A stretch of DNA of 64,000 nt, taken from contig CAZMLK010000001.1 in assembly GCA_964567265.1 (NCBI GenBank), positions 262,574-326,573 of the forward strand, read 5' to 3'. Origin of the DNA: an uncultured Candidatus Saccharibacteria bacterium. Its GTDB lineage: Bacteria; Patescibacteriota; Minisyncoccia; Phycocordibacterales; UBA12088. The notes under the pieces are model-generated. The model ran no database searches, was not told the DNA's origin, and worked only from the letters and a program-made list of their open reading frames with translations. Below are positions 2,029 to 61,788 of the stretch, one piece after another. The position numbers were made by a program, and so were the translations under genes. Position 1 is the stretch's first letter; each line of letters opens with the position of its first letter.

Positions 2029-2033
2029 CACTC

Positions 2034-2378
2034 ATGAATACCTTTGAACATGTCCTTAAGGGGAAAAAAGTAGAAGTTATCAACGATAAGCCAGAAAAAT
2101 ACGAAGACGGAACTGTCGGCAATGATTGGGGTCTGGGTTTCGAGGGAGATTGGGGCTTGGCAATCTATGCCAACAGGGTAATAAAAAATGCCGAGTCGCT
2201 GAAAGATTTCGTTGGTGAAAAACTTACTTCAATCCAAGAAACAGAGAATGCAGTTGTTTTCGACTTCACTCATGAAAAAAAAATAATAATTTCTTTGGAA
2301 GAAAAAGATTGGAACGGCCCGGAGATAATGATGCTACAACGAGATAATCAGATATATGTATGGGGTGTCGGTGAATAG
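2034..2378 (+). CDS. putative cognate immunity protein for the Rhs C-terminal toxin
   Basis: 114-aa acidic ORF starting 6 nt after the toxin stop, which is the typical toxin-immunity arrangement. It is AT-rich like the toxin tip. Confidence 0.55.
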   Translation: MNTFEHVLKGKKVEVINDKPEKYEDGTVGNDWGLGFEGDWGLAIYANRVIKNAESLKDFVGEKLTSIQETENAVVFDFTHEKKIIISLEEKDWNGPEIMMLQRDNQIYVWGVGE

Positions 2379-2447
2379 CCGGTAGCTGTAGTCAGAGATA
2401 CCTCCAATACTCTTTAAAAGGCAGGGCTCAATATTCTCCATATAATT

Positions 2448-2639
2448 ATGAAAAAGATACCAATAACGCTTCTGCCGATCGTTCTAATTTTGATCGTTCT
2501 CCTCCTGTTCACTTTCTACGTGCCGCAGAGCGGGGATTTGATTTCTAGTAAAGGTGACTATTACTTGGGGCAAGCGCTCGGCCTCCTAACAGTGCTTTCA
2601 CTCCTCTTGGATTTTATGAGGTTCCAGAATCGCAAGTAG
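2448..2639 (+). CDS. small membrane protein with two predicted TM helices
   Basis: 63-aa ORF with two hydrophobic segments, located in the AT-rich cassette region. Confidence 0.35.
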   Translation: MKKIPITLLPIVLILIVLLLFTFYVPQSGDLISSKGDYYLGQALGLLTVLSLLLDFMRFQNRK

Positions 2640-2683
2640 AAACCAGCTGTAGTCTGTCGCCGGGGACACATCCATTTGAAACT

Positions 2684-2908
2684 ATGAAAGAAGAAATACT
2701 AATGCCGCTTGATGAAGAGGGAATCACCGTCTATCGACCCGTTTTGGCATTAAGGATTAATGATCACATTTATAAAATTCTTGAAGATACCTTAAATAAC
2801 CAAAATGATGAAGTTTGGGCCTTTAAGCCAGGTGAAGTCGTAGAGGTTGTTGAAAAAGAATTCGAGAATAAAAAATCATTGGTTGCCGTAAATTTGTACA
2901 AAGAATAA
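2684..2908 (+). CDS. hypothetical small protein
   Basis: 74-aa ORF in the cassette region with the same orientation as its neighbours. Confidence 0.35.
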   Translation: MKEEILMPLDEEGITVYRPVLALRINDHIYKILEDTLNNQNDEVWAFKPGEVVEVVEKEFENKKSLVAVNLYKE

Positions 2909-2953
2909 TGTATTTAACGCAAAGTCAGTCGTAATTAAACTGAATTCAATTCT

Positions 2954-3214
2954 ATGAACGACGGAAATAAACTTACACCGGATGAAGCATATAAGGCTAT
3001 GTTTTTCTTTCTAGATCGATGGTGGAAAGAAGGAGGACAGAAAGAAGATAACATTGCAAATATACTCAGTAGTATGTCTCTTTTAGCAGATGGTTCTTCT
3101 GCGGACGGCGCTATGATGCAAGACTGGAAAAATAGTGTCAAAAAGGTTCTCGAGTATCGAGGAAGGGTGGAAACGGGGGAAGAACCATGGATGTTGAATT
3201 TGACTAATAATTAG
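2954..3214 (+). CDS. hypothetical small protein, possible orphan immunity gene
   Basis: 86-aa ORF. GGGGACACRTCCA-like junction motifs flank this gene and the previous one. Confidence 0.4.
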   Translation: MNDGNKLTPDEAYKAMFFFLDRWWKEGGQKEDNIANILSSMSLLADGSSADGAMMQDWKNSVKKVLEYRGRVETGEEPWMLNLTNN

Positions 3215-3382
3215 GTCTTAGAATGGTATTGTCTTGTGGCGGCGTAGGGGAGTAGCGGGGGGACACGTCCAATATTCCTCCAAAATCTGTGGAGTACTAT
3301 TCTCCATCTGTCCGGTAGGGGTGGGACCAACACCACTACTTGCTTTTTTCTGGGCTTGCTGCATAATGTCGCTCATTAAATT

Positions 3383-9083: not shown

Positions 9084-10261
9084 TGACTATCCCGACAGAG
9101 CTGCTTGGCAGCAATGCTGGCAGTCCCTTACGGATTGCCATGGTGAGCCAGTTATTCGAGCTCACGCCCCCGAAGAAGTATGGGGGCACCGAGCTCTTTG
9201 TAGCCACGCTCACGCGCACCCTCGTCAATATGGGCCACCATGTCACGCTCTACACCGCCGGCGGCTCGCTGCCGATCGGTTCGACGACGATCTACGCGAC
9301 ACCCGAGCCTCTCTGGATGGAAGGCAAGCCGCTCATCTCGGATTCTGATGCGGCTGAAATCCATGCGGATATGTACCGCACGGTCATCCGTGATGACCGC
9401 TATCGCAAGTATGATGTCATCATTCTCAATGGAGAATGGCATTTCATCGATACGGACCTCGCACGGGATCTGCAATGTGTGAAGCACAAATGCCTCACCG
9501 TCATGCATGGCCCGACGGAGACGTCGGATCGAAGCGACGCGTGGAAAATTGGCGCGTGCGGATGGAATCTCGTTTCCATATCGGATGCGCAGCGCATCGG
9601 CCTCGATGAGTTCGCGGCCAGGTCGAAGAAGGATCTCTCGCCCACCTGGATGGGAACCGTGTATCACGGACTGAATCCTAAGGATTTCCCGGAACCCGTC
9701 TTCGAATCCACCGGCGGACTTGTCTTCCTCGGTCGCATGCACGAGACCAAGGGTGCGCATACGGCAGTCGCGATCGCGAAGAAGGCCGGCATCCCGCTCC
9801 ACATCGCGGCGCGGATCCACGAAGGTCCCGAGGGCGACCACTACCGCGCGCATGTCGAACCCCACGTCGATGGCGTGAGTGTCATCTGCGTCGGGGAGGC
9901 AGACTTCGTGCAGAAGACTGCGCTTCTCCGCAACGCGGACGCGCTCTTGTTCCCGATCGAATGGCCTGAGCCGTTCGGCCTGGTCATGATCGAAGCGATG
10001 GCCTGCGGCTGTCCCGTCATCGGCTATGGGCACGGTTCCGTTCCCGAAGTCGTCGATGAAGGCGTCACCGGATTCGTGGTCAGTTCCATCGAAGAAGCCG
10101 TTGCGGCGATTCCGCGCGCACGTCTCCTCGATCGGAACAACATCCGCCGGCAGTTCAGGGTCCGTTTCTCTGCCACGCAGATGGCTACCCAGTACGTGCG
10201 CATCTTCCGCACGCTTCTCCAAGGAAAAAAAGACGCACCCGCCGCCCGTCTAGCGGCATAA
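9084..10261 (+). CDS. glycosyltransferase family 4 (GT1/GT4 fold)
   Basis: C-terminal EPFGLVMIEAMACGCPVIGY is a GT4 signature. GGAG lies 8 nt upstream of ATG 9084. The ORF is open further upstream to 8978. Confidence 0.85.
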
Positions 10262-11155: not shown

Positions 11156-11254
11156 AGACCAAGCCTCCTGGCCGAAACTTGACAAATAAAATAATTACTC
11201 TATTGTTTTTTGGAAATCCATGTTCCCATTGCAACGTGAAAGGAACCAATCGGC

Positions 11255-11710
11255 ATGAATGAGACCCATGGCGGCAGCTCAGTAGAGATTCGCCGCCTGC
11301 ATCTGGGGGACGCGCATGCATGCTTTGAAAATCTGAGATATCTATATGAGCAGCTTTCCCAGGAACGCGGGTCACTATCGCTCTACCAGCTCCAGCGCGC
11401 CCTCAGCACGGCTTCAACGGTCGTGATGGTCGCTCGAAAGAGCAACATCCTTGTCGGTACCGCCACCATCTGCATTGCGCCCACCATCGGTGGCACGCTG
11501 GCATTCATCGAAGCAGTTGTCGTCGATTCGGATCATCACGGCCACGGGATCGGCAAAAGCCTCATGCTCCGTTTACTGGATCGCGCGAGATCCGAAGGCT
11601 GTACATCCGTCCAGCTGACCTGCCGACCGTCGAGGGAGATTGCGCACAAACTCTACGCGTCACTCGGATTCAAGTGCAGAGAGACTGATCTTTTACGGTT
11701 GATGTTGTAA
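11255..11710 (+). CDS. GNAT family N-acetyltransferase
   Basis: VVVDSDHHGHGIGKSLM acetyl-CoA binding motif. SD AAAGGAAC upstream. Confidence 0.8.
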   Translation: MNETHGGSSVEIRRLHLGDAHACFENLRYLYEQLSQERGSLSLYQLQRALSTASTVVMVARKSNILVGTATICIAPTIGGTLAFIEAVVVDSDHHGHGIGKSLMLRLLDRARSEGCTSVQLTCRPSREIAHKLYASLGFKCRETDLLRLML

Positions 11711-11716
11711 AGAAGT

Positions 11717-11752
11717 GCGCCCCGAGCTGTAAGCTCGGGGCGCTTTCCATTC
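11717..11752. terminator. bidirectional terminator between convergent genes
   Basis: GCGCCCCGAGC tgtaa GCTCGGGGCGC followed by a T-rich tract. Confidence 0.55.
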
Positions 11753-11763
11753 CAATTTCGCAC

Positions 11764-13416
11764 CTAGGAATGCGCCATGTTTGCCTTGATGTCCTCGACC
11801 GTCGCGCCGTATTTCTTGCCCGGATTGAGGATGCCGGCGGGATCGAAGATCTCCTTGGTCTGCCGGAAGAGGTCGTACATCTCCTTGCCGAACATCTGCT
11901 CGAGATAGGGCGTCCGTATGAGGCCATCGTTGTGTTCCGCGGTGATCGAGCCCTTGTACTCGTGCACGAGGTCGTACACCTTGGTATTGAGTTCCATGAT
12001 ATCGATCTTGGTCTGCGGATTCTTGAAGTCCATGAGCGGAATGATGTGGAAATTGCCGTCACCTGCGTGGCCGGCGATGGTGTAGAGGAGCTTGTGCTCG
12101 TCGAGGAGCGCCTGGAGCTTCGGAAGGAATGCGGGCAGATGCTCCGGCTTCACGACGACGTCCTCGATGAACGGCGCGGTCCGCATATTGCGCACATGCT
12201 TCCGAAGCAGATTGAAGCTCTCATGGCGGATGCGCCAATACTTCTCGGCCTCGCTTTGCGAGCGGGCGATGTGAATCTCGTAGCCGAAATGTATGACCTT
12301 TTCCTTGACCTCGACGAGCTGTTTCTTGATCGCAGCATCATCGTCGCCAGCAAATTCAACAAGAAGCATGAGCTTTGGGATCTTGCCGCCGCGGATAATT
12401 TTCCATGCGTCCGGGATGAACTGGAAGCCGAGCCGGACCATGCCGAATGTGCCGATCTGCTTCCAGAAATCGAAAAAGAATTTGACCGCGAGCTTCAAGC
12501 TGTAGTCATCGAAGGTCTCCAAAGTTTCAGGCCCAAAGGGAAGGATCTCGTTCACGATCTCGCTGAGGCGCGTGATGTCCGGCATGAAGACGACGAGGAT
12601 GTTCGACTTCGGATGCGCTGGGACAAGCTTGAAGGTCGCCTCGGTCACGAGCCCAAGCGTGCCTTGGGATCCGACGATCAGCTTGCAGAGGTCGAAAGTC
12701 CCAGTCTTCGGATCGTACACATCCCAGAGGTAGTAGCCGGCGGAATTCTTGGAGACATCGGGCTTCGCTGCCATGATGCGATCCTTGTTCGCCTCAATGA
12801 GCTGCCAGAGCTTCTTGTAGAGCTCGCTCTCTGAGGTGCCCTCAGCAATCTTCGCGTCGAGCTCTGCCTTCATGAGCGGCCGGACGACGTATTCATTGCC
12901 ATCCGTGAAGACGACCTTAAGGCCGGTCACGAAGTCGCGCACCTGTCCGTAGCGGAGGCTCTTCTCGCCGCCCGAATTATTAGAGACGATGCCGCCGATC
13001 GCGCAGAGCTCGCGCGATGCCGGGAAGGTGGGCATCAATGTATTATTCTTCATCGTCGCCTTCTCGAAGTCGCGGTAGTGGAGGCCAGGCTCGGCGGTGC
13101 CGGATTCAGGCGTGACGCTGCCCAAATGATTCATGTACTTGGTGAAGTCCGCGATGATGGACGCGCCGACCGCGCCGCCCGACATGTCGGTGCCGGCAGA
13201 TCGCGCGGTTATGGAAAGCGTCGGGTCTTCTGCTTTGTGTGCAGCCACCCATTTCACCAATGTCTGGACGTCCTTGGAGTGCTTTGGAAAAACGACGACC
13301 TTCGGACGGATCTCGAAAATGCTGGCGTCGCGCGAGTAGGTTGTTAAGGTCTTTTCAGAAGAATCGATATCGCCCTCGAAATCAGGCTTCAGGGAATCGA
13401 ATGAAATGGTGCTCAT
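11764..13416 (-). CDS. FAD-binding oxidoreductase (GlcD / D-lactate dehydrogenase family)
   Basis: FAD_binding_4-like N-terminus with the FAD-linked oxidase C-terminal domain. The start is chosen at MSTISFDS, with ATG at 13416 on the minus strand. Confidence 0.85.
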   Translation of the reverse strand: MSTISFDSLKPDFEGDIDSSEKTLTTYSRDASIFEIRPKVVVFPKHSKDVQTLVKWVAAHKAEDPTLSITARSAGTDMSGGAVGASIIADFTKYMNHLGSVTPESGTAEPGLHYRDFEKATMKNNTLMPTFPASRELCAIGGIVSNNSGGEKSLRYGQVRDFVTGLKVVFTDGNEYVVRPLMKAELDAKIAEGTSESELYKKLWQLIEANKDRIMAAKPDVSKNSAGYYLWDVYDPKTGTFDLCKLIVGSQGTLGLVTEATFKLVPAHPKSNILVVFMPDITRLSEIVNEILPFGPETLETFDDYSLKLAVKFFFDFWKQIGTFGMVRLGFQFIPDAWKIIRGGKIPKLMLLVEFAGDDDAAIKKQLVEVKEKVIHFGYEIHIARSQSEAEKYWRIRHESFNLLRKHVRNMRTAPFIEDVVVKPEHLPAFLPKLQALLDEHKLLYTIAGHAGDGNFHIIPLMDFKNPQTKIDIMELNTKVYDLVHEYKGSITAEHNDGLIRTPYLEQMFGKEMYDLFRQTKEIFDPAGILNPGKKYGATVEDIKANMAHS

Positions 13417-22712: not shown

Positions 22713-22992
22713 AAAAATGAGTCAAAACTCCATCATGCAAATCGTCTTTCTTGTCCTGGGTATCTGGGGAGTGTACCGCGGATTTATGATTACCTACTCA
22801 AAGAAGTATTTTCTCGAGAAAGTTCTGCGAGTTTATGACATAGACAGTGATACTGCTTACGAAAAAATTCCAATATCCACTCGAAAATACCTACGGTATC
22901 GCGGCGGATTGGGAGGCCTCGGCGTAGGAATTATTTTGCTCGGTCTTTTCTGTGTAATGACGTTTATTGATTGTCACGGATTTTGTAAATAA
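22696..22992 (+). CDS. small membrane protein
   Basis: 98-aa ORF, low GC, two TM helices, overlaps the ATPase stop. Confidence 0.3.
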   Translation: MNRIIEKMSQNSIMQIVFLVLGIWGVYRGFMITYSKKYFLEKVLRVYDIDSDTAYEKIPISTRKYLRYRGGLGGLGVGIILLGLFCVMTFIDCHGFCK

Positions 22993-23070
22993 GCAATAAC
23001 TTACACCGTCCCCGACAGTTAGGAACATCTTCATGGCCGCAATTTTTTTCTACAGTCGGAAGTACTAAGA

Positions 23071-23119
23071 AAAAACAAACCACCGCAAAGGCTATGCCTT
23101 TGCGGTGGTTTGTTTTTTT
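23071..23119. terminator. bidirectional terminator (long perfect palindrome with A and T flanks)
   Basis: AAAAAACAAACCACCGCAAAGGC tat GCCTTTGCGGTGGTTTGTTTTTTT. Confidence 0.7.
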
Positions 23120-23132
23120 AAAGTCATTCAGT

Positions 23133-23573
23133 TTAGCGCGGAATTGCAGGGCTCCCTGCACCGCGGAGCTGGATCGATTTCGCGGTGAGGCTACCGTCGG
23201 TGTTGCCGGTGCCCATGACGGTCACTTCTGTGCCCGCCGCGAGATCGGCAAGCGAGCCTGCCGCTGACTTGAGCACTTCGGTCGAGGTCGCGAAGAGCAC
23301 GATCTTGGTGCTGCCGTCCATCATCTTGAGGGTCAGGCTGGTGTCATCCTTCGAGAGGATCGCGCCTGAAGCAAATCCGGTTCCGCGCGCGAAATTGCCC
23401 CGCGCTGCGCCGCCGCGCTGTCCGCCTGGACCGCCCTGGAATGCGCCATTCGCGAAGGCATCCGCGCGGGACGCGCGCGCGTAGCGCATGCCAGCATAAA
23501 ACGAACTGCTTCCAACGACAAGAAGTGCGATCACGAACGGCACCAACAGCTTCGGCTCCATGTATTTTTTCAT
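23133..23573 (-). CDS. secreted protein of unknown function, last gene of the efflux operon
   Basis: Signal peptide followed by a Gly-rich region. Co-oriented and tightly linked with the MacB-like genes. Confidence 0.5.
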   Translation of the reverse strand: MKKYMEPKLLVPFVIALLVVGSSSFYAGMRYARASRADAFANGAFQGGPGGQRGGAARGNFARGTGFASGAILSKDDTSLTLKMMDGSTKIVLFATSTEVLKSAAGSLADLAAGTEVTVMGTGNTDGSLTAKSIQLRGAGSPAIPR

Positions 23574-32817: not shown

Positions 32818-33828
32818 ATGAAAATTGCATTCTTCAAATGTCTCCCGTGGGAGCGGGGAAAGCTCGAAGCGGCGCTTGGTGGTGGCAATACGCTCACTTT
32901 TTTTGATTCAGTCCTCACTGCCGCCACTGTCCCGCCTGAGACCGGCTTCGATGCCATCTCGGTGTTCGTCGATTCAGCGGTCACGAAAGACGTGCTCGAG
33001 AAATTCCCGAACCTGAAACTGATCGCGACCCGCTCGACTGGTTTTGATCATATTGATACCACCTACTGCAAGGCAAAGGGAATCGCGGTTTCGACCGTTC
33101 CTTCCTATGGAGAGAACACGGTTGCGGAACACGCCTTCGGCCTTCTCCTCGCGCTCTCAAAGCGGATCTATGACGGCTTCGAGCAGGTCCGCATGCACGG
33201 AGATTTCAATCCGAACGCGCTCGAAGGATTCGATCTCCTCGGGAAGACCATCGGCGTCCTCGGGACCGGCCGTATCGGCCGCCATACCATCCAGATCGCG
33301 AACGGTTTCGGCATGAAGGTCATTGCGTATGATCCCTATCCGAACCAGGAACTCCCCGCAAAACTCAATTTTGAATATCGAGCGTCCGTTGACGAGATCC
33401 TCGCGGAGAGCGATGTCGTGACCATCCACGTGCCGTACACCAAGGAAACGCACCACCTCATCAACCGGAACAACATCATGAAGATGAAACAGGGAGCGGT
33501 CCTCATCAACACGAGCCGGGGGGCGATTGTTGAGACCTTGGCACTTGTCGAATGCCTCAAATCCAAGCATCTCGGCGGCGCAGGCCTCGATGTGCTCGAA
33601 GAGGAGAGCATGATCAAGGACGAGCTCGATTTCCTTGCCGAAGCCAATATGGACGGCCACGACCTCAAGACCGTGCTCGCGAACCATGTCCTCATCGATC
33701 TCCCGAACGTCGTCATCACGCCACATAGCGCCTTCAATACGAAGGAGGCCCTGGGGCGCATCCTCCAGACTACGCTTGAGAACATCCAGGCATTCGCGGC
33801 AGGGAAGCCAGCGAATCTCGTCCCCTAG
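32818..33828 (+). CDS. D-isomer-specific 2-hydroxyacid dehydrogenase (D-lactate / phosphoglycerate dehydrogenase family)
   Basis: NAD-binding GVLGTGRIGR. Catalytic residues in NTSRG...ALVE...GAGLDV...H region. Start MKIAFF. Confidence 0.9.
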   Translation: MKIAFFKCLPWERGKLEAALGGGNTLTFFDSVLTAATVPPETGFDAISVFVDSAVTKDVLEKFPNLKLIATRSTGFDHIDTTYCKAKGIAVSTVPSYGENTVAEHAFGLLLALSKRIYDGFEQVRMHGDFNPNALEGFDLLGKTIGVLGTGRIGRHTIQIANGFGMKVIAYDPYPNQELPAKLNFEYRASVDEILAESDVVTIHVPYTKETHHLINRNNIMKMKQGAVLINTSRGAIVETLALVECLKSKHLGGAGLDVLEEESMIKDELDFLAEANMDGHDLKTVLANHVLIDLPNVVITPHSAFNTKEALGRILQTTLENIQAFAAGKPANLVP

Positions 33829-33851
33829 GGTAGTAAAAAACTAAGAAGAAA

Positions 33852-34070
33852 ATGATGGTTTTTTTGAATTGGCTATTTGTTCAGGGATATTGGCAACCAG
33901 TATCAGCGATAATTCTTGGTTGTTTGCCCTACCTCTGGGTTATTCGAAAACGTGGATTCAATCGTCAAGGAGTCACCCTTCTGGATTCCTATTTGCTCAT
34001 GTACGGCGGACTCCTCATTCTTCTTGGAATTATGTATTTGGACGCCTACTTCGATCCACAAAATTGGTAG
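33852..34070 (+). CDS. small membrane protein
   Basis: 72-aa ORF in low GC with two TM helices. Confidence 0.3.
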   Translation: MMVFLNWLFVQGYWQPVSAIILGCLPYLWVIRKRGFNRQGVTLLDSYLLMYGGLLILLGIMYLDAYFDPQNW

Positions 34071-34170
34071 GTTAATTTGACGTCGAGACGACTAGACGGA
34101 CACTTGCGCTATTTAAAAACATGTGGTATGGTTTTGAAAGTTAGATTCCACAGCCTTGGAGGCTATCCAC

Positions 34171-40385: not shown

Positions 40386-40456
40386 TCCTTAGATCCTCAC
40401 CTGGTTCCAAAGAAAACCGTACGTGAGATTCCACCGAGTGTCAAAGGAAATGAGAA

Positions 40457-40479
40457 GGGCCCGCGCGAAGCGCGGGCCC
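40457..40479 (-). terminator. GC hairpin terminator of small-membrane-protein paralog A (repeat copy 1)
   Basis: GGGCCCGCGC gaa GCGCGGGCCC lies 21 nt after the stop of paralog A. The same hairpin recurs at 40844. Confidence 0.55.
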
Positions 40480-40499
40480 GGTTACGCTGATGCAATGCG

Positions 40500-40760
40500 T
40501 CAGTAGTGTCGATGTGTGCGAGCGTCATGGTTCCGATGAGCAAGACAGTCGATGGCCCATGCAAGTGCGCCGATGAGCGCGGTAACAATGAGGCAGAAGA
40601 TGATGAGCGGGCTGTATGCTGACAGCCACCAGGCGAAGTCTCTCTCGGGTATTCCAAGAAGAAACGCAGTGACAGGTTCCGCTGTCATGGTCTCCGCTAG
40701 ATGAAGGCCGAAGATAATGACGAATCCGACGAAGATGAGCCGCCAAAGTGCTCCGATCAT
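40500..40760 (-). CDS. small two-TM membrane protein, paralog A of a tandem pair
   Basis: 87 aa starting at MIGALWRLIF. The GIPERDF motif is shared with paralog B. SD AGGGGG upstream. Confidence 0.55.
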   Translation of the reverse strand: MIGALWRLIFVGFVIIFGLHLAETMTAEPVTAFLLGIPERDFAWWLSAYSPLIIFCLIVTALIGALAWAIDCLAHRNHDARTHRHY

Positions 40761-40793
40761 TCCGTGCCCCCTTAGTTGGTACGAACTTCGACC

Positions 40794-40822
40794 ATATAAC
40801 CATATATACGAGTATATGTCAA
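40794..40822 (-). promoter_or_regulatory. sigma70-type promoter of paralog A (TTGACA-17-TTATAT on the minus strand)
   Basis: Same architecture and spacing as the promoter at 41192-41220. Confidence 0.55.
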
Positions 40823-40843
40823 TGGTTTGGCATGTAGGAAAAT

Positions 40844-40864
40844 GGCCCGCGCGAAGCGCGGGCC
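40844..40864 (-). terminator. GC hairpin terminator of paralog B (repeat copy 2)
   Basis: GGCCCGCGC gaa GCGCGGGCC lies 16 nt after the stop of paralog B, followed by TTTTCC on the minus strand. Confidence 0.55.
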
Positions 40865-40879
40865 GGAGGCTGAATGAGC

Positions 40880-41158
40880 TCATTTGTTCCGAGACCTGTC
40901 GATATTGCGGACGCGGTCCATGAGTTGCTCATACTGGTTAATACGGTCGAAACCCCACGCGACGATGCCGATGATTCCGACCAGTGCGAACACGAGGAAA
41001 CTGAGCGAGCCGTATTCATACTGCCAATCGTAGAAGTCCCTCTCAGAGATTCTCAGTATGAATGGGGTCAAAGGCACTGTAGTCATAATCTCCGCCAAGT
41101 ACAGACCGACGATGGGCGTGAGTACAATCAGAATGAAACGCCAGATGAATCCGAGCAT
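40880..41158 (-). CDS. small two-TM membrane protein, paralog B of a tandem pair
   Basis: 92 aa with two TM helices, a RISERDF motif and a charged C-terminal tail. SD AAGGA is 8 nt upstream. Confidence 0.55.
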   Translation of the reverse strand: MLGFIWRFILIVLTPIVGLYLAEIMTTVPLTPFILRISERDFYDWQYEYGSLSFLVFALVGIIGIVAWGFDRINQYEQLMDRVRNIDRSRNK

Positions 41159-41191
41159 TTCTCTATCCTTCCGGTTGCTATAACTTTGGCA

Positions 41192-41220
41192 ATATAACCA
41201 TAGATAAAACGTACTGTCAA
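41192..41220 (-). promoter_or_regulatory. sigma70-type promoter of paralog B (TTGACA-17-TTATAT on the minus strand)
   Basis: -35 at 41215-41220 and -10 at 41192-41197 read on the minus strand. Confidence 0.55.
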
Positions 41221-41293
41221 TTTTTTTGTGGGTACCGCATGGCGCTACCCATTCGGAATCTAAAATGCGCAGCTTTGTGCTAAGGTGTCATGG

Positions 41294-42466
41294 ATGACCG
41301 AATTCTCATACGAAATACTGAAGCGAAAAGGTAATGCCCGTGCAGGCATCATTCATACCCCGCATGGCGATATCGAGACGCCGGCTTTCGTCGCGGTCGG
41401 CACCAAGGGCACGGTGAAGGCGCTCACGCCCGAGATGCTGGAGTCCCTCGGCTCCCAGATCATCCTTTCGAATACCTACCATCTCTACCTCCAGCCGGGC
41501 GATGAGACCGTCCGTGACGCGGGCGGTCTCCATAAATTCGCCAACTGGGACAAGCCGTTCATGACGGATTCTGGTGGCTTCCAGGTATTCTCGCTCGGCG
41601 CTGCCTACGGGAAGCAGCTCACCAAGATCGCGAAGGAGGCGATTCCGGATGAATCGAGCACGCCTGCAATCTACGACGAGGATATCGCGACACAGCACGG
41701 CCAGCTCGCGATTATCGATGAAGAGGGTGTCACCTTTACCTCGCACATCAATGGCAGCCTCCATCGCTTCACGCCGGAGCGCTCGATCGAGATCCAGCAT
41801 AATCTCGGAGCAGACATCATCGTCGCATTCGACGAATGCACGTCGGCAACGGCTTCGAAGGACTATCAGCATGAAGCGATGGATCGCACGCATCGGTGGG
41901 CAGAACGCTCCTGGAAAGCGCACAAGCAGAATCTGGATGCGTCCCGAAAGCAGGCGCTCTTTGGTGTCGTCCAAGGCGGACGATTCGAAGATCTCCGGCG
42001 TGAAAGTGCAAAGGCAATTGCCGACATGCCATTTGATGGATTCTGCATCGGCGGTTCATATGTGAAGGAAGACCTCGACACCGCCGTCGGCTGGGTATGC
42101 GAGGAATTGCCTGAAGACCGCCCACGTCATCTCCTTGGTATCGGTGAGCCGTCGGACCTCGTCTCAGGAATCGCGAAAGGTGTCGACATGTTCGACTGCG
42201 TCGCGCCGACGCGCATAGGCAGGAATGGCTGCGTGTACTCCAAAGCAGGGAAGTTAAATCTTTTGAATGCAAAATTTGTCCGCGACTTCGGTCCGCTGGA
42301 CGAAGGGTGCAGCTGCTACGCCTGCCGGAACTACTCCCGCGCGTACATCGCGCATCTTTTCCGCGCAGACGAGATGCTCGCAGCCGTCCTCGCCAGCATC
42401 CACAACATCCATTTCATCGTGAACCTCGTCAAAGCAGAGCGCGAGAAGATATTGATGATGAGATAG
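41294..42466 (+). CDS. tgt: queuine tRNA-ribosyltransferase (tRNA-guanine transglycosylase)
   Basis: ARAGIIHTPHGDIETPAFVAVGT, DCVAPTR and CSCYAC zinc-site motifs. ATG at 41294 with SD AAGGTG. Confidence 0.95.
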   Translation: MTEFSYEILKRKGNARAGIIHTPHGDIETPAFVAVGTKGTVKALTPEMLESLGSQIILSNTYHLYLQPGDETVRDAGGLHKFANWDKPFMTDSGGFQVFSLGAAYGKQLTKIAKEAIPDESSTPAIYDEDIATQHGQLAIIDEEGVTFTSHINGSLHRFTPERSIEIQHNLGADIIVAFDECTSATASKDYQHEAMDRTHRWAERSWKAHKQNLDASRKQALFGVVQGGRFEDLRRESAKAIADMPFDGFCIGGSYVKEDLDTAVGWVCEELPEDRPRHLLGIGEPSDLVSGIAKGVDMFDCVAPTRIGRNGCVYSKAGKLNLLNAKFVRDFGPLDEGCSCYACRNYSRAYIAHLFRADEMLAAVLASIHNIHFIVNLVKAEREKILMMR

Positions 42467-42530
42467 CTTTTCGGAGGAGCTTCTCGAAGCATACCCTCTC
42501 ACTATCCACAGTTTTCTGTTCTAATGCCAT

Positions 42531-42558
42531 TTGCAACATTCGCGCACAGCGGTAGAAT
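42531..42558 (+). promoter_or_regulatory. sigma70-like promoter TTGCAA-16-TAGAAT
   Basis: Lies upstream of a structured non-coding segment. Confidence 0.45.
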
Positions 42559-42564
42559 GATATG

Positions 42565-42736
42565 GCTGAAGCGTGGATTGGTTTTATGAGCAATCATTAT
42601 TAGAAGTAGGGGCTCTTATCTTGATTGCGAAGTATCAGGGGTAAAACCTTAAATGCTTCAGCAAAACATTGCGGTATCGGTCTTCTAACGATGACTTGTG
42701 CCTTGATGCTTCGCAATCAGTACGAGAGCCTTTTTA
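42565..42736 (+). ncRNA. candidate structured small RNA (promoter plus long imperfect hairpin plus T-run), family unknown
   Basis: 5' arm 42609-42640 pairs with 3' arm 42701-42730, including GATTGCGAAGyATCA on both arms. An outer GGCTCT/AGAGCC pair closes the stem, followed by TTTTT. No convincing ORF. Confidence 0.3.
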
Positions 42737-43111
42737 ATTCCTCCTCAAAGTTCCCATGAGGGGGCGTTAGAAATAGTAGGGCACCCCCCCCTGTACCCTC
42801 GAATGTTGCACGTTACGCGACTGCATCATGGGAAAATATTTTCTCAGGTGTTTCCCGGGTGAGAACGGCACGGTTTGCTGTGAACATCCAAATGGCAGCT
42901 GGATTTGCTTTCCAGCTGGAAATGCAAAAGACCCGTCAAACGACGAGTCTCTCGCATAAGTCTGGCGACTTCACAACGCTCCCTACGGGGAGCTTTGTGT
43001 TTTTATTTTACCCTGCTTCGCATGAAGCAGAGATGTGCACTTTACCGTATTTGGGGATAGCTACGCAAATCAATTTTGTCTACCTGTCTTTATGGAATAG
43101 GTACCAAAATG

Positions 43112-43140
43112 TTGACTGATTAGCTAAATACTTGTATAAC
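43112..43140 (+). promoter_or_regulatory. sigma70-like promoter TTGACT-17-TATAAC
   Basis: About 35 nt upstream of the GGAGG SD and ATG 43176. Confidence 0.5.
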
Positions 43141-43175
43141 CCCTATAGCACAATTTCGTGCGCGGAGGTTATTCG

Positions 43176-43736
43176 ATGCCAAGAGGAAAAAAAGCCACTG
43201 GGGCGGATGCGAACAAGCAAGGCACTGCAGTAATAGGCAACGGGGCGCCGAGGCCAAGACGGCCGAGAGTTAATCCAGAAACCGCAGTATTGCCGCTTGT
43301 AAATGTTCCTGCACGCGACACGGTCGATGAGATCCCGGCCGATTCCGTGGTTGCGGAGGAAAATCCAGATTTCACAGCGGGCGAACGAGACGGTCTCGTC
43401 GAAAGGGTGGAGCTGCTCTCGAGTGAACTGGTAGGGCGCGACAGCACTATCGAAACCCTGCGTGCGGAAATTGCCACACTCAAGATGGAGAATGCATCTT
43501 TTCGAGAAGAAGGTACCACCGGCGGAATCCAGTTCGCAGTCCTGAAGACCGCTGCTCTGATGCTCCTATTTCCGAACGGCATCTCAAAAAAAAGAGCGGG
43601 TGAGCTGAGACAGGCGTACATTCATGCTCCCAAAAGTATGGCGAGCAAGGAGGTCTTAGCAGCAATCATCTGGCTCATCAGAGAGGCATACGAACAGGAG
43701 TTGCTGGAGGAATTTCCAGAAGCCGGACACGTGTGA
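43176..43736 (+). CDS. hypothetical protein with a basic N-terminus and a coiled-coil
   Basis: GGAGG lies 7 nt upstream of ATG 43176. Low GC. No recognisable domain. Confidence 0.55.
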   Translation: MPRGKKATGADANKQGTAVIGNGAPRPRRPRVNPETAVLPLVNVPARDTVDEIPADSVVAEENPDFTAGERDGLVERVELLSSELVGRDSTIETLRAEIATLKMENASFREEGTTGGIQFAVLKTAALMLLFPNGISKKRAGELRQAYIHAPKSMASKEVLAAIIWLIREAYEQELLEEFPEAGHV

Positions 43737-43752
43737 CATCCTGAATCACTGC

Positions 43753-43792
43753 GGCCGACACGAACCATATGGTTCGTGTCGGCCTTTTTTAT
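43753..43792 (+). terminator. rho-independent terminator
   Basis: GGCCGACACGAACC atat GGTTCGTGTCGGCC followed by TTTTTT. Confidence 0.75.
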
Positions 43793-43799
43793 TTGACAG

Positions 43800-44231
43800 A
43801 TGCAGTCATACCGCGTATGCAAAGGAAGGAATCGTTTCACTTGTCGTGGATGGACTGGAATCGATATGCCGAAGAGAAGGAATGATCCTGATGAGGATCT
43901 CGCCCGTGAAGTACGGATGTCAGGACTCCCTGATGAGATCATTGAGATCCTCGTCTCAATCCTCAAGTTGACGAGAGGATTTACAAGGCCGGCACGGCGA
44001 AAGATCGAAAAGCCATGGGACACGCATACTGTGAAAGCGTTCATCGCATTCCGCAAACGCCTTTCCGCGAAATATCCAAATCTCACCCTCCTTCCGTTCT
44101 ACGTGAAGCGGCCGAAGAAAAGCGTATGGCATTGTGCCTGGCTTACCAAGCGGACCGGGCCGGGAAGAAAGCATCCGTACGCTGCAAGCAGTTCATTTGC
44201 TTCGAATGAACGTTCACAGGCGGCGAGTTAG
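43800..44231 (+). CDS. hypothetical protein (basic)
   Basis: 143-aa ORF. The start is uncertain, with an alternative ATG at 43866. Confidence 0.4.
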   Translation: MQSYRVCKGRNRFTCRGWTGIDMPKRRNDPDEDLAREVRMSGLPDEIIEILVSILKLTRGFTRPARRKIEKPWDTHTVKAFIAFRKRLSAKYPNLTLLPFYVKRPKKSVWHCAWLTKRTGPGRKHPYAASSSFASNERSQAAS

Positions 44232-44255
44232 CAAACGAGGACACGAAGGAGGGGC

Positions 44256-44286
44256 GAAGCCGGCGCGTGAGCGCCGGCTTTTTCTA
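44256..44286. terminator. bidirectional terminator
   Basis: AGCCGGCGC gtga GCGCCGGCT followed by TTTTTC. It lies between convergent genes. Confidence 0.6.
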
Positions 44287-45297
44287 TTTCTGAAGCGAGA
44301 AGTGGCGGAGCGCGCGGTACATTTCAATCACGGAGCCACCAAATGTTGTCTCATGATAAGGGAGACCTTCCGCCTCACAGAACCGCTTTACTATCTTCTG
44401 CGCTTTTCCGAGGTTCGGCCGGGGCAAGTATGAGAATAGATGGTGCTCGATCTGGTAGTTGAGGCCGCCGAGCGCGAGGTCGGTAAGAGGTGATGCATAG
44501 ATATTGCGCGTGCAGATGATCTGCGTCCGATAGGTGACCTTCTCGTCTGCCCCAAGCACCTCCTCACCCTTGTGGTTCGGCGCGAACGAGAACCCCGCAT
44601 ATGCGCCGGCGACGAGCATGGTCACGATGAGGAACGCGATGCCGAGCCAGATTCCCAAGCTCGCGAAGATGATCCAGAAGAGGAAAACGAAATGAATCCC
44701 CATGAGTGCAAGCTCGAAAAGACGGATGGGGCGGAACAAGGTCACCCATGAAAGCGGAATGCTTTTGAGGACGTAATTGAAGTACGCAAGCGGCATGAAC
44801 AGGAAGAAGTACCAGTGCTGGTGCGGCAGGACGTACTTCCGGTACCATGGGCCGCGCGTCGCAAGCTGCTCAGCGGTGAACACAAGCGGGAGATCGATAT
44901 CCGGATCCTCGCCGATCTTATTCGTGTTCTTATGGTGCTCGTTATGGCCGGTGTACCAGAAATCGAGGCTGATGCCGAGACCGAGCGCGTACACGAGCGA
45001 TCCCACCCAGGTATCGGCAGTCTGCGACGAGAACACTTGGTGGTGCGCGATATCGTGCCCGAGGAAGCCGAGTTGCATGAAGGTGATGCCGAGAAACACC
45101 GCATTCAGGAGCTGGACGATGACATTATCGACCAGTGCGATGCAGACAAAGGAAAGTAGAAGGCAGGTGAGCACGACCACGGTGTAAAGGAAATAGAATC
45201 CCGGCCGCTTCCTGAAGAGGTTCGCCTGCTCAAGATCAGCCTTGAGACGGAGATAGGGCTCCATCGATACCGTCGTCGTGTGTGAAGGAGCATTCAT
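44284..45297 (-). CDS. membrane fatty acid desaturase (three histidine boxes)
   Basis: HDIAHH, HNEHH and HQIEHHLF histidine boxes. Start at MNAPSH is uncertain; the ORF is open to 45333. Confidence 0.85.
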   Translation of the reverse strand: MNAPSHTTTVSMEPYLRLKADLEQANLFRKRPGFYFLYTVVVLTCLLLSFVCIALVDNVIVQLLNAVFLGITFMQLGFLGHDIAHHQVFSSQTADTWVGSLVYALGLGISLDFWYTGHNEHHKNTNKIGEDPDIDLPLVFTAEQLATRGPWYRKYVLPHQHWYFFLFMPLAYFNYVLKSIPLSWVTLFRPIRLFELALMGIHFVFLFWIIFASLGIWLGIAFLIVTMLVAGAYAGFSFAPNHKGEEVLGADEKVTYRTQIICTRNIYASPLTDLALGGLNYQIEHHLFSYLPRPNLGKAQKIVKRFCEAEGLPYHETTFGGSVIEMYRALRHFSLQK

Positions 45298-45397: not shown

Positions 45398-47443
45398 ATG
45401 GCAGGATTCAAACTCAAATCAAAATTCGAGCCGGCAGGTGATCAGCCGAAAGCAATCGAAGGCTTGGTGAAAGGCCTTGAAAAAGGAATGGAACACCAGA
45501 CCTTGCTTGGCGTGACCGGTTCTGGGAAGACGTTCACCATCGCGAACGTGATCGAGAAGCTGCAGAAGCCGACCTTGGTAATCGCGCACAATAAGACGCT
45601 GGCGGCGCAGCTGGCGCAGGAATACACGGAGTTCTTCCCGGATGCCGCCGTGCACTACTTCGTTTCGTACTATGACTACTACCAGCCGGAGGCCTATGTG
45701 GCGGTATCTGATACCTATATAGAGAAGGAGGCGCAGATCAACGAGGAGATCGACCGGCTTCGCCATGCGGCCACCCAGGCGCTTCTGACGCGGAAGGATG
45801 TGATCGTGGTCGCATCCGTCTCCTGCATCTATGGACTCGGAAGCCCGGTCCAGTACGAGAAGGTCCATATAAAGGTGGAGAAGGGAGCGGCGCTTTCTCG
45901 CGCCGAGCTCCTTCGGAAGCTCGTGGGGGTCTATTTCACGCGCACGACCGCGGATATCCTCCCGGGCACGTTCCGCGCACGCGGCAACATGATCGAGATC
46001 ATGCCGACGTCGGAGCGGGTCATCTTCCGCATCGAGTTCTCGGCCGATGTCGTCACCGGTATCTCCAAAATAGACCCGCTCACGCGCGCGATCACCGAAA
46101 CGCCCGATTCCTTCTTCCTCTTCCCGGCAAAGCACTATGTGACGCCGGAGGATGAGCGCGGCCGCGCGATCGCGGATATCCGCATCGAGCTCAAGGATCA
46201 ATTGAAAAAATTCGAAGCCGAAGGGAAGATCATCGAAGCGGAGCGCTTGAAGCGCCGTACGAGCTACGATCTCGCGCTTATCAAGGAAGTGGGCTACTGC
46301 AACGGCATCGAGAACTATTCGCGCCATTTCGACGGACGCGCTCCCGGCGAGCCGCCCTATACGCTCCTCGACTACTTCCCGCACACGAAAGACGGCAGGG
46401 CGGACTTCCTGACCGTCATCGATGAGTCGCATGTCACGATCTCGCAGATCGGCGGCATGTATGCCGGCGATCGCTCCCGGAAGACCACGCTCGTGGACTA
46501 TGGATTCCGCCTTCCCTCGGCAATCGACAACCGCCCGCTCAATTTCGATGAATTCTACGCGCGCGTAGGGCAGCGCATCTACACATCCGCGACGCCGGGT
46601 AATTACGAGCGCGAGCACTCCGAGCAGGTCGTCGAGCAGATCATCCGCCCGACCGGACTTCTCGATCCTGAGATCGTGCTCCGTCCCGTGACGGAAGCAG
46701 GCGCATACAAAGGCCAGGTTGCTGACTTCATGGCTGAGACTGCTGCTGCGGTGACGCATGGCGGCCGTGTGCTCGTGACCACACTCACCAAGAAGATGGC
46801 GGAAGACTTCAGCGAATACCTGAAGGAAAAGGGCATCAAATCGGAATATCTCCATAGCGATGTCGAGACTTTGGACCGCATCACGACCTTGACCGAGTTC
46901 CGCAAGGGCACCTTCGATGTGCTCGTTGGCGTGAACCTCCTCCGTGAAGGCCTCGATCTTCCTGAAGTCGAGCTCGTCGGCATCTTCGATGCGGACAAGG
47001 AAGGCTTTCTCCGCTCTGAGACCTCGCTCATCCAGACCATGGGCCGTGCCGCGCGTAATATCGACGGCCGCGTGATCCTCTACGCGGATACCATGACCAA
47101 CTCGCTCACGAAAGCGATCGACGAGACCAATCGCCGCCGCAAGATCCAAGCGGATTACAACCAGAAGCACGGCATCACGCCGCAGTCGATCAAGAAGACC
47201 ATCAGCGACATCACCGAGCTCCTCCAGAGCGAACGCAAGAAGACAGCGCAGGCGCTCCTCGCAATCGAGCAGGATGCGTTCAAGGGAGATGCCGAGGCAT
47301 TCATCCGAGAGAAGAAGCTCCAGATGCAGGAAGCAGTGAAGCTGCTCGACTTCGAAACCGCGGCCGTCCTTCGTGATGAGATCGCCGTACTCGAGGGCGG
47401 AGACGCGAAGCCGAAAAAGAGCGGCACCTATCGGCGTCGGTAG
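45398..47443 (+). CDS. uvrB: excinuclease ABC subunit B
   Basis: GVTGSGKTF Walker A, helicase motifs and a C-terminal UVR domain. ATG at 45398. Confidence 0.95.
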   Translation: MAGFKLKSKFEPAGDQPKAIEGLVKGLEKGMEHQTLLGVTGSGKTFTIANVIEKLQKPTLVIAHNKTLAAQLAQEYTEFFPDAAVHYFVSYYDYYQPEAYVAVSDTYIEKEAQINEEIDRLRHAATQALLTRKDVIVVASVSCIYGLGSPVQYEKVHIKVEKGAALSRAELLRKLVGVYFTRTTADILPGTFRARGNMIEIMPTSERVIFRIEFSADVVTGISKIDPLTRAITETPDSFFLFPAKHYVTPEDERGRAIADIRIELKDQLKKFEAEGKIIEAERLKRRTSYDLALIKEVGYCNGIENYSRHFDGRAPGEPPYTLLDYFPHTKDGRADFLTVIDESHVTISQIGGMYAGDRSRKTTLVDYGFRLPSAIDNRPLNFDEFYARVGQRIYTSATPGNYEREHSEQVVEQIIRPTGLLDPEIVLRPVTEAGAYKGQVADFMAETAAAVTHGGRVLVTTLTKKMAEDFSEYLKEKGIKSEYLHSDVETLDRITTLTEFRKGTFDVLVGVNLLREGLDLPEVELVGIFDADKEGFLRSETSLIQTMGRAARNIDGRVILYADTMTNSLTKAIDETNRRRKIQADYNQKHGITPQSIKKTISDITELLQSERKKTAQALLAIEQDAFKGDAEAFIREKKLQMQEAVKLLDFETAAVLRDEIAVLEGGDAKPKKSGTYRRR

Positions 47444-60051: not shown

Positions 60052-60124
60052 GGGCCCGTAGCTTAGTTGGTAGAGCACCTCATTTGCAATGAGGGGGTCA
60101 GGAGTTCGAATCTCCTCGGGTCCA
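60052..60124 (+). tRNA. tRNA-Ala (anticodon UGC)
   Basis: Cloverleaf folded by hand. Acceptor stem GGGCCCG/CGGGUCC with a G3:U70 wobble pair, D-arm GCUU..GAGC, anticodon loop UUUGCAA, T-arm AGGAG-UUCGAAU-CUCCU and discriminator A73. CCA is not encoded. Confidence 0.9.
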
Positions 60125-60126
60125 CA

Positions 60127-60167
60127 AAATACAAAAGCCCTGCCACTTTGGCAGGGCTTTTGTATTT
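60127..60167. terminator. 19-bp perfect-stem hairpin terminator, bidirectional
   Basis: AAATACAAAAGCCCTGCCA ctt TGGCAGGGCTTTTGTATTT. Inner stem of a larger 89-nt palindrome. Confidence 0.7.
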
Positions 60168-60378
60168 CAGTGAATGACCCGAGGAGATTCGAAAGCCGGA
60201 AAACAATGCTCCCGGGGAGCAGTGTTTGAGGCGGGGTCGCGAACACTGAGCAACTCGTGAGCGAAAATGCGCTCGTCAGGATGTTCCAATCACCAATAAG
60301 AACATTTCCTGGAGAAAGCCAAGATGGTAGCATATCTACTATACGTTTTTTATAAGTCGATTTTTCAAATTTTGAAGC

Positions 60379-61788
60379 ATGTCAACATCACACACCCTGA
60401 AGGCACTCGCATTCGGGATTACACTGCTCGCGTTCGCTCCTATCTCTTACGCGGCATTTGATACCGATCTCCAGTTTGGCGCAAAGGGCGCTGAGACAGT
60501 TGAGCTCCAAAAAGTACTGATTAGTCAAGGATATCTGAACGGGACTGCGACCGGTAATTTCCTTTCGTTGACAAAACAGGCAGTTATCAAATTCCAGAAA
60601 GCGTCGAATGTTCCGGGAACGGGCTATGTAGGCCCGCTGACTCGTGCGAAGCTTAGACTTCTAGTCGGAACCCCTGTTACATCAACTCCAATCATTGCGA
60701 CAACAACGATCGCTGTTCCTGCAGTGCCAGCTCCAAGTGTTTCAACTCCCCAAGTGCCGGCAATTCCATTTTACGTTGCGAAAACTATCTGGGAGTTTTC
60801 CGATAACACGAGCCCGTTCCAACTTCCGGCCACGAATACTCCCCCCGCTTCAAATTTCGTAGACCCAGCACTTTTTACAGAGAAGCAAATAGATCCACGT
60901 GCGATCGTGCTTGTGCGGTGCCTGTATGTGCCTGACTACTCCAAAACGAGTTACAAGGGAAGTACCGAACCCCAAGTGTTTTCAGGTACGGGCGTCGTCG
61001 TTTCGCCGGAAGGGCATATTCTCTCGGCTGGCCATATCTTGAATGGTGCAGTGCTGCTTGAAGAGTCGGGCTCGAATGTCACTTGGACAAGAAAGGGGTG
61101 CGACATTGCGCCAACATCTTCCTCACTAACCCCTATAGACCCATCTGCTGGTGTTTCAAATAAAACACACTTCGATCCTGTGGAAATCGTCTTCGAACCT
61201 TCCGCAACGGAGTTCAATGTCATCAAGGTGACTGATCCAGACAGCCCCGGAAAGACAATAACGCTTGGAGGAGGTGCCGATCTTGATTTCGCCCTCCTGC
61301 AGGTGAAGGGTCTCAATCTTCCGTATGCGCCCCTTGCGTCAAAATTGCTTTCTCTGAAGCCTGGCGAAAAAACAATAGGGCTTGGATACCCTGGAGTTGC
61401 CGGTAACCCATATGGGTTGGAGCGTATCGACGGACAGTTTGATGGATATATCTGGTCAGAATATTCCACATGTGTAGGGAAGATGATCGTTGAGCGCTGT
61501 GGAGTCAGTTACCAGACAAAACGCTATAAGAATGAGTACAAGAAGCTCTACGGCGTCCAGACTGAACTCGGCAAACATACGAGTTACTTCCGCGGCGGTT
61601 TCTCAGGCGGACCATTGTTCTATAAAGGAAATGTTATCGGCATCATTACATTCGGACGCGAAAATTCCTACACCAATCTGTATGATCTCTCAACGGTCGG
61701 ACTCTGGAACTGGGTGGTCGCGCTTTCATCCAACGAGATCGTGACGACATTGAGGATGCACGGAATCAATCTCGCAACGGTTCCATAG
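60379..61788 (+). CDS. secreted trypsin-like (S1) serine peptidase with an N-terminal peptidoglycan-binding domain
   Basis: Signal peptide. PG_binding_1-like repeat (ETVELQKVLISQGYL...KFQKASNV). His region LSAGHIL, GGFSGGPLF serine motif. Low GC. Confidence 0.7.
   Translation: MSTSHTLKALAFGITLLAFAPISYAAFDTDLQFGAKGAETVELQKVLISQGYLNGTATGNFLSLTKQAVIKFQKASNVPGTGYVGPLTRAKLRLLVGTPVTSTPIIATTTIAVPAVPAPSVSTPQVPAIPFYVAKTIWEFSDNTSPFQLPATNTPPASNFVDPALFTEKQIDPRAIVLVRCLYVPDYSKTSYKGSTEPQVFSGTGVVVSPEGHILSAGHILNGAVLLEESGSNVTWTRKGCDIAPTSSSLTPIDPSAGVSNKTHFDPVEIVFEPSATEFNVIKVTDPDSPGKTITLGGGADLDFALLQVKGLNLPYAPLASKLLSLKPGEKTIGLGYPGVAGNPYGLERIDGQFDGYIWSEYSTCVGKMIVERCGVSYQTKRYKNEYKKLYGVQTELGKHTSYFRGGFSGGPLFYKGNVIGIITFGRENSYTNLYDLSTVGLWNWVVALSSNEIVTTLRMHGINLATVP

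Follow-up and report, generated by a model that had tools for sequence, protein, structure and literature searches.

Introduction

In comparative genomics, chromosomal hot spots at which gene content turns over between conserved core genes are a general concept. Here, we describe the interval between two core genes, tgt (queuine tRNA-ribosyltransferase) and uvrB, in a 64-kb stretch of DNA (hereafter, the window) from an uncultured Candidatus Saccharibacteria bacterium (contig CAZMLK010000001.1), together with the two orphan open reading frames (ORF1 and ORF2), the fatty-acid desaturase gene and the 656-bp non-coding insertion located within it. The interval resembles such hot spots in that tgt and uvrB bracket a content that differs in nearly every related species and consists mostly of small orphan genes. 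However, it is very small (0.07–2.9 kb) and contains no integrase, tRNA gene or prophage remnant, and ORF1 has been exchanged exactly at its coding boundaries.

The insertion was likewise compared with described elements. Similarly to the palindrome-associated transposable elements (PATEs) of the IS200/IS605 group of insertion sequences (IS), it has no inverted ends and lies beside a short sequence without a longer duplication, and its near-end hairpins and structured RNA recall both PATEs and the associated guide RNAs. Unlike them, it contains no transposase or nuclease gene, is present as a single copy and matches no known guide-RNA family; moreover, its right hairpin is misplaced, and a terminator precedes its right end. 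With miniature inverted-repeat transposable elements (MITEs) and cis-mobilisable integrative elements it has in common that it is short, non-coding and flanked by a 4-bp junction repeat, whereas it lacks terminal inverted repeats, a significant repeat resembling an attachment (att) site and other copies. As with stand-alone small RNAs (sRNAs) and those of 3΄ untranslated regions (UTRs), it includes a plus-strand segment of ~175 nt with a promoter-like site, strong structure and a hairpin followed by a U-run, directly 3΄ of a gene without its own terminator (tgt); however, this candidate shows no conservation, Rfam family or convincing target complementarity. The locus represents ordinary genome plasticity, and no known mobile element or regulatory system corresponds to it. 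On balance, and with moderate confidence, we favour the reading in which the tgt–uvrB junction is a turnover hot spot with orphan genes and a captured non-coding insert that carries an sRNA/terminator module.

Results

The tgt–uvrB interval in related genomes

We compared the synteny of 80 tgt loci using tblastn. Among species-representative genomes, the closest tgt relatives were those of uncultured Saccharibacteria or Patescibacteria metagenome-assembled genomes, the nearest of which (L001) shares 83% amino-acid identity. The uvrB gene is located directly 3΄ of tgt in 11 related loci, and the gap between the two genes ranges from 69 nt (L007) to 1586 nt (L009), with different and unrelated small ORFs in each species; in the window, the interval is 2.9 kb, desaturase included. 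Because the size and content of the gap differ among the 11 loci, the tgt–uvrB junction is a lineage-wide variable interval; in other words, it is a hot spot for gene turnover in this Saccharibacteria-like lineage. A first-pass annotation of the window had singled out the block between tgt and the desaturase gene as a low-GC islet. The content of this block is not conserved across the lineage, and the desaturase gene, at which the islet was taken to end, itself belongs to the variable interval.

In the window, tgt is followed by ~700 nt without a credible ORF, ORF1, ORF2, a hairpin, the desaturase gene on the minus strand and uvrB. The related contigs L081–L084 keep the order tgt, ORF1, ORF2, desaturase and uvrB, and the interval of this clade is predicted to hold three separately transcribed genes, namely ORF1, ORF2 and the desaturase gene. 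In the outgroup L001, the tgt–uvrB gap (11183–12361) is filled by three other small genes, each with a promoter-like site and a terminator. Only the first of these (84 aa) resembles the window content, through the C-terminal domain of ORF1, and the two further small ORFs show no homology to ORF2. The block is not a single unit; the comparison with relatives revealed two layers, in that older orphan genes are combined with one non-coding insertion of recent date.

The insertion and its junctions

The strain-specific non-coding insertion comprises 656 bp (42456–43111, plus strand) and is missing from L081, L082, L083 and L084, in all of which the tgt stop codon and the ORF1 start are separated by 52 nt. 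The empty site in the relatives reads ...AAGATATTGA|CTGATTAG, where TTGACT doubles as the last tgt codons (...L T D stop) and as the –35 hexamer of ORF1, and the filled site in the window reads ...GATATTGA-TGATGAGATAG...CCAAAATG-TTGACTGATTAG. The ends of the insertion can slide by the 4-nt TTGA that is present at both junctions (42452–42455 and 43112–43115), and the left junction of the filled site reads TTGAT. The overlap between tgt and the –35 hexamer was split by the insertion, and the duplicated TTGA restores the hexamer, such that the ORF1 promoter is intact and displaced 656 bp downstream. At the other side, two residues of the tgt C-terminus are changed, from ...KILTD-stop to ...KILMMR-stop. 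When the tgt C-termini of L082, L083, L084 and L001 were compared, the outgroup L001 was also found to end in ...KILTD-stop; thus, an insertion in the window strain is more parsimonious than a deletion elsewhere. An assembly artefact is made less likely by a separate Logan assembly (L085), which is 100% identical to the window across the insert.

The same pair of alleles would result from a deletion between the two TTGA copies, and the size and strong structure of the non-coding stretch resemble those of an ORF-less intron. Nevertheless, we consider two readings extremely improbable, namely an ancestral stretch that the relatives have lost by deletion and a self-splicing intron at the 3΄ end of tgt. 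An uninterrupted ...KILTD-stop is present in four lineages including L001, and the –35 hexamer overlaps the tgt end in L082–L084, so that deletion would need identical independent events. In addition, no group I or group II Rfam model matched at E ≤ 10, none of the five boundary registers fits GUGYG...AY or places a U ahead of the 5΄ splice site and a G at the terminus, and two terminators are located inside the stretch.

The four bases of TTGA fit target duplication, microhomology or chance equally well, and TTGA(T) as a possible fixed target is seen at one insertion only. No junction repeat beyond TTGA was significant (248 of 2000 shuffles score as well), and none of the 23 inverted pairs detected over 42400–43200 joins the ends of the insert. 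A derivative of a MITE or classical IS was rejected on the grounds that there are no terminal inverted repeats and no second copy in the 64-kb window or the fetched loci, and an integrative element of a site-specific recombinase on the grounds that there is no integrase ORF and that the junction similarity is not above that of shuffles.

Content and folding of the insertion

The sRNA candidate (42565–42738, plus strand) consists of a 5΄ stem-loop and a 125-nt branched hairpin (42609–42733) followed by U5; it folds with a z-score of –4.66 and contains an inverted repeat with 30-nt arms. A promoter-like site, TTGCAA-16-TAGAAT (42531–42558, plus strand; 9/12 matches), is located upstream. Two hairpins reported in the first-pass annotation were recovered: an 8-bp hairpin, CAGCTGGA/TCCAGCTG (42896–42918, plus strand), by inverted-repeat and sequence inspection, and a hairpin with a T-tract at 42978–43010. 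The latter is the core of an intrinsic-terminator-like structure (42972–43010, plus strand) with a 12-bp stem (42972–42999) and a UACG loop, where GCTCCC-tacg-GGGAGC occupies 42978–42993 and the T-tract extends to 43010. Near the right end of the insert, a 7-bp hairpin, CTGCTTC-GCAT-GAAGCAG, was found at 43013–43030 (plus strand). In total, the insert holds two terminator-like hairpins. Terminator-like sites were called at 42978, 43753 and 44256, the first of which has no homologues for comparison.

We then computed the folding energies of the whole insert. As plus-strand RNA it folds at –238 kcal/mol, compared with –183 kcal/mol for shuffled sequences (z = –10.8), and as minus-strand RNA with z = –5.6. 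For the background, we used 300-nt windows of this sequence (212 windows; mean z –0.65, standard deviation 1.76), of which 3.8% reached z ≤ –4; the plus-strand windows of the insert ranged from –5.3 to –5.9. Two 300-nt windows elsewhere, 9101–9400 (minus strand) and 22901–23200 (plus strand), are as extreme as the insert, with z-scores of –7.6 and –6.3, respectively, and neither has an Rfam match at the gathering score.

Rfam searches of the window, the islet and the insert alone, at the gathering score and at E ≤ 10 and on both strands of the insert, yielded no relevant match; over 42440–43130, a snoRNA (small nucleolar RNA) model at E = 7.8 was the only one. Assignment to any Rfam RNA family was accordingly rejected, as no covariance model matched at or near the gathering score. 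In BLAST searches of the 64-kb window and the fetched loci, the insert matched only itself, as did the sRNA candidate when a covariance model of it (R1) was run against the window and 16 related loci. The insert had no blastn match in phage and plasmid collections, and exact-word scans of viral and Joint Genome Institute (JGI) metagenome contigs returned chance words only, mostly in coding DNA. A scan for tRNA and tmRNA genes found none inside the islet.

The small ORFs of the insert were inspected for a toxin or peptide gene, and none with a ribosome-binding site was found. The longest ORFs wholly inside it encode 21–51 aa and appear spurious, including a 43-aa Cys-containing ORF (42828–42959) that was rejected, and an 86-aa GTG ORF extends 8 nt beyond the right end. 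In agreement with the first-pass annotation, which noted the absence of mobility genes, no Pfam mobility domain was found in the ORFs tested, and no remnant of tnpA, tnpB, iscB, a transposase or an integrase was detected in the insert in any frame.

These data bear on the possibility that the insert is a PATE-like, non-autonomous element of the IS200/IS605 type inserted 3΄ of TTGA(T), whose RNA would be a remnant of, or related to, a transposon-encoded guide RNA. The absence of terminal inverted repeats, TTGA as the sole junction repeat with TTGAT at the filled left junction, hairpins with GCTTC/GAAGC stems near both ends on the same strand (42477–42488 and 43013–43030) and the strongly structured RNA are all consistent with such an element. 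However, neither a tnpA, tnpB or iscB remnant nor any notable ORF is present in any frame; the insert is a single copy according to the searches of the window, the 16 related loci and the phage, plasmid, viral and metagenome collections; and no Rfam family, HEARO included, was matched. Moreover, 81 nt separate the right-hand hairpin from the end of the insert, the GCTTC/GAAGC motif also recurs inside it, and the terminator ~100 nt before the right end would halt the plus-strand RNA and is ill-suited to a 3΄ guide. We therefore regard a PATE-like element as quite unlikely. A speculative reading, to which we give very little weight, would be an undescribed mobile element of Patescibacteria, non-autonomous and sampled here for the first time, that would move as its own highly structured RNA, or aided by it, and would target TTGA at gene ends; the sensitive search for copies covered the window, which is about one tenth of the genome.

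A simpler possibility is that the insert is functionless captured DNA, neither expressed nor selected, with hairpins and terminators left over from an intergenic region of the donor. It is present in one strain only, its internal promoter match is at chance level, no homologues were found, and other small strain-specific insertions occur in the same genome. On the other hand, its plus-strand folding falls in the extreme tail of the window background, and tgt has no terminator of its own, so that read-through must transcribe, as we infer, at least the first 270 nt of the insert. Functionless DNA is thus a possible but somewhat doubtful explanation, and the insert is most likely a recently captured non-coding fragment with an sRNA or terminator module of putative function.

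The orphan genes ORF1 and ORF2

ORF1 (43176–43736, plus strand) is preceded by GGAGG at 43164–43168 and encodes 186 aa, one fewer than first annotated; it had also been described as basic, whereas the protein is acidic overall (pI 5.25) and basic only over its first ~35 residues. Its promoter, TTGACT-17-TATAAC (43112–43140, plus strand), is present as originally described, and both hexamers are kept in L082, L083 and L084, with TTGAC(T/C)-17-TATAA(C/A) as the consensus among relatives. The intrinsic terminator of ORF1 (43753–43794, plus strand), which had likewise been noted, has a 14-bp stem at 43753–43784 with compensatory changes in L084 and L081.

ORF2 (43866–44231, plus strand) encodes a basic (pI 10.7) orphan protein of 121 aa. 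The open frame at 43800–44231 and the basic character of its product agree with the first-pass annotation, whereas the length of 143 aa, which follows from an ATG at 43800, does not. The start at 43866 is most likely, because 121 aa is the length encoded in the relatives and the spacer of a conserved promoter contains the ATG at 43800. The hexamers of this promoter, TTGACA-17-TATGCA (43793–43821, plus strand), are the same in the window, L084 and L081, although the surrounding sequence has diverged. The promoters of both ORFs and the terminator of ORF1, although predicted, exceed chance, as three diverged relatives share the conserved hexamers and the stem changes are compensatory.

To measure selection, we calculated dN/dS between the window and L081. 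The values were 0.42 for ORF1 and 0.24 for ORF2, indicating that both code for protein, compared with 0.02–0.05 for tgt, the desaturase gene, uvrB and the gene of the ribonucleotide reductase (RNR) small subunit; in other words, ORF1 and ORF2 evolve 10–20 times faster than their neighbours.

Among 5.8 billion proteins, a word-indexed search matched ORF1 only to itself and to P0002 (71% identical), and ORF2 only to P0003 (98%) and P0004 (65%), both of 121 aa. Besides P0002, ORF1 is homologous to the allele in L084 (33%) and to P0005, a protein of 84 aa from L001; the C-terminal 70 residues of ORF1 thus recur as a stand-alone protein at the same position in L001. A profile of this C-terminal region retrieved clade members only from the same 5.8 billion proteins, and when an ORF2 profile was run exhaustively against 1.84 billion representatives using HMMER, only its own cluster was retrieved. 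Neither ORF had a significant match in the sequence profiles of Pfam, NCBIfam, PHROGs, PADLOC and PDB, and the searches made thus returned no homologue outside the clade, no fold match and no known family, housekeeping or other. ORF1 and ORF2 are, on the evidence of their sequences, real, clade-restricted and fast-evolving orphan genes under purifying selection.

The AlphaFold2 models of the two proteins were poor, with predicted local distance difference test (pLDDT) values of 57.6 and 50.8. In the model of ORF1, a disordered N-terminus is followed by a long helix at about residues 68–112 and a small helical C-terminal domain, which carries the motif LLxFPxGxxxKR. ORF1 may therefore be a coiled-coil scaffold carrying a small helical interaction domain, and the composition of ORF2 suggests that it probably binds nucleic acid.

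In the nearest strain, L084, the flanks of ORF1 are similar to those of the window at the nucleotide level (93% identity for tgt, 97% from ORF2 onward), whereas the ORF1 coding sequence has zero nucleotide similarity and its product 33% amino-acid identity. Positions 1396–2007 of L084, which encode this 203-aa allele, correspond to 43185–43753 of the window, and the break points of the replacement are the start codon and a site just past the stop codon. Such similar flanks around a dissimilar coding sequence indicate a swap to a distant allele and not gradual divergence, and in L084, as far as can be read from the alignment, ORF1 alone has been exchanged, exactly at the coding boundaries.

The replacement of the ORF1 coding sequence alone between strains with flanks 93–97% identical, the dN/dS values 10–20 times those of the neighbours and the location in a turnover hot spot might indicate that ORF1, possibly with ORF2, is an arms-race gene under diversifying selection, which would act, for example, in host-cell interaction, defence or counter-defence. 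However, there is no PADLOC, PHROG or Pfam match, dN/dS is below 1, neither a signal peptide nor a membrane segment is apparent in the sequence, and just four alleles are known. We thus consider an arms-race role unlikely.

Flanking genes and other features of the window

The borders of the interval are formed by tgt (41294–42466, plus strand; Pfam PF01702 (TGT), E = 1e-138), for which the gene call in L085 is 390 aa, and by uvrB (45398–47443, plus strand), the conserved right-hand border, which is supported by gene calls and by the tblastn matches adjoining tgt in the 11 related loci. Within the interval, the desaturase gene (44284–45264, minus strand; Pfam PF00487 (FA_desaturase)) encodes 326 aa, also according to gene calls, and is under strong purifying selection (dN/dS = 0.046). 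A tblastn search for a desaturase next to tgt found no match in any of the 80 tgt loci, L001 included, and the adjoining arrangement is seen in this clade only. These bacteria are thought to depend on host lipids, so that an enzyme that modifies lipids stands out. ORF2 and the desaturase gene are convergent, and the hairpin between them (44256–44281, no strand assigned), whose stem-loop is conserved in L084 and L081, is probably a bidirectional terminator. Exact-protein look-ups of the RNR small subunit, the desaturase and UvrB returned the same strain only, in runs SRR16481186 and SRR16481187.

The first-pass annotation described the whole block as compositionally foreign; the GC content is clearly low only in its non-coding part (0.459, compared with 0.558 for the whole window). 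A GC content of 0.45–0.49 is confined to 42350–43250, whereas the ORF1/ORF2 stretch has 0.50–0.56 (0.54 and 0.53 for the whole ORFs, respectively); at third codon positions, GC is 0.55–0.57 in ORF1 and ORF2, compared with 0.70–0.84 in the neighbouring genes. The dip is not unique in the window: the ORF-poor stretches 1–876 and 2026–3379 have a GC content of 0.405, below that of the islet, and the genome thus contains several low-GC patches.

Variable DNA is present on both sides of tgt, as the region from the RNR small-subunit gene to tgt (40424–41256) has no nucleotide similarity to L081. This region carries tandem, apparently paralogous ORFs for small membrane proteins on the minus strand (40500–40883 and 40880–41158). 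A second strain-specific insertion relative to L081, of 274 nt and low GC content (33828–34101), lies just after a 2-hydroxyacid dehydrogenase gene and carries a 72-aa membrane ORF (33852–34070) with two hydrophobic segments; small insertions thus recur in this genome. Finally, a tRNA-Ala gene (60052–60125) is followed by a terminator and then by 18 nt that exactly repeat the 3΄ end of the tRNA in inverted orientation (60176–60193). This arrangement, which may be the scar of an integration event, gives the strongest folding score of the window (z about –11 for 60101–60400).

Discussion

The first-pass annotation suggested that the block might be a degraded mobile element or a regulatory module. 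Its observations are largely correct with the corrections given above, and its interpretation is in part supported, in that the block is variable and acquired; neither a content conserved across the lineage nor matches to housekeeping families, which would have spoken against it, were found. As for a degraded mobile element, the 656 bp are indeed a strain-specific insertion, whereas the marks of known mobile elements are lacking, and ORF1, ORF2 and the desaturase gene are older and not degraded. A regulatory module finds no support in these analyses: the ORFs are predicted to form separate transcription units, and no RNA family or DNA-binding domain was detected.

In the reading that we favour, a hot spot with orphan genes and a captured insert, the insert would be a fragment of an unsampled donor that was captured through target duplication (4 bp) or microhomology joining, and would still carry an sRNA/terminator module. 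Its transcription may start at its own weak promoter, giving an RNA of ~175 nt (42565–42738), or extend from tgt and provide that gene with a new structured 3΄ UTR. Its two terminators may now insulate ORF1 from tgt read-through, which would have been possible in the ancestral 52-nt arrangement.

Several findings weigh against this reading. The promoter assigned to the sRNA candidate, TTGCAA-16-TAGAAT, is no better than chance (3 sites found versus 3.3 expected), and the right half of the insert folds as well or better on the minus strand. As no homologues of the insert were found, it provides neither a covariation test nor a known donor. The L085 assembly may share the sample of the window genome and thus confirms the assembly, not an independent strain. 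The roles suggested for ORF1 and ORF2 derive solely from composition and low-confidence models (pLDDT 51–58).

The locus provides a clean, base-resolved case of gene turnover that persists in a very small episymbiont genome, in which a recent non-coding insertion appears to have been tolerated because both the tgt end and the ORF1 promoter were rebuilt by the insertion itself. Both orphan proteins and the structured RNA, to which no function is assigned, may contribute to lineage-specific biology, and, if further copies of the insert are found, these could define a new small mobile element or a new class of RNA in Patescibacteria.

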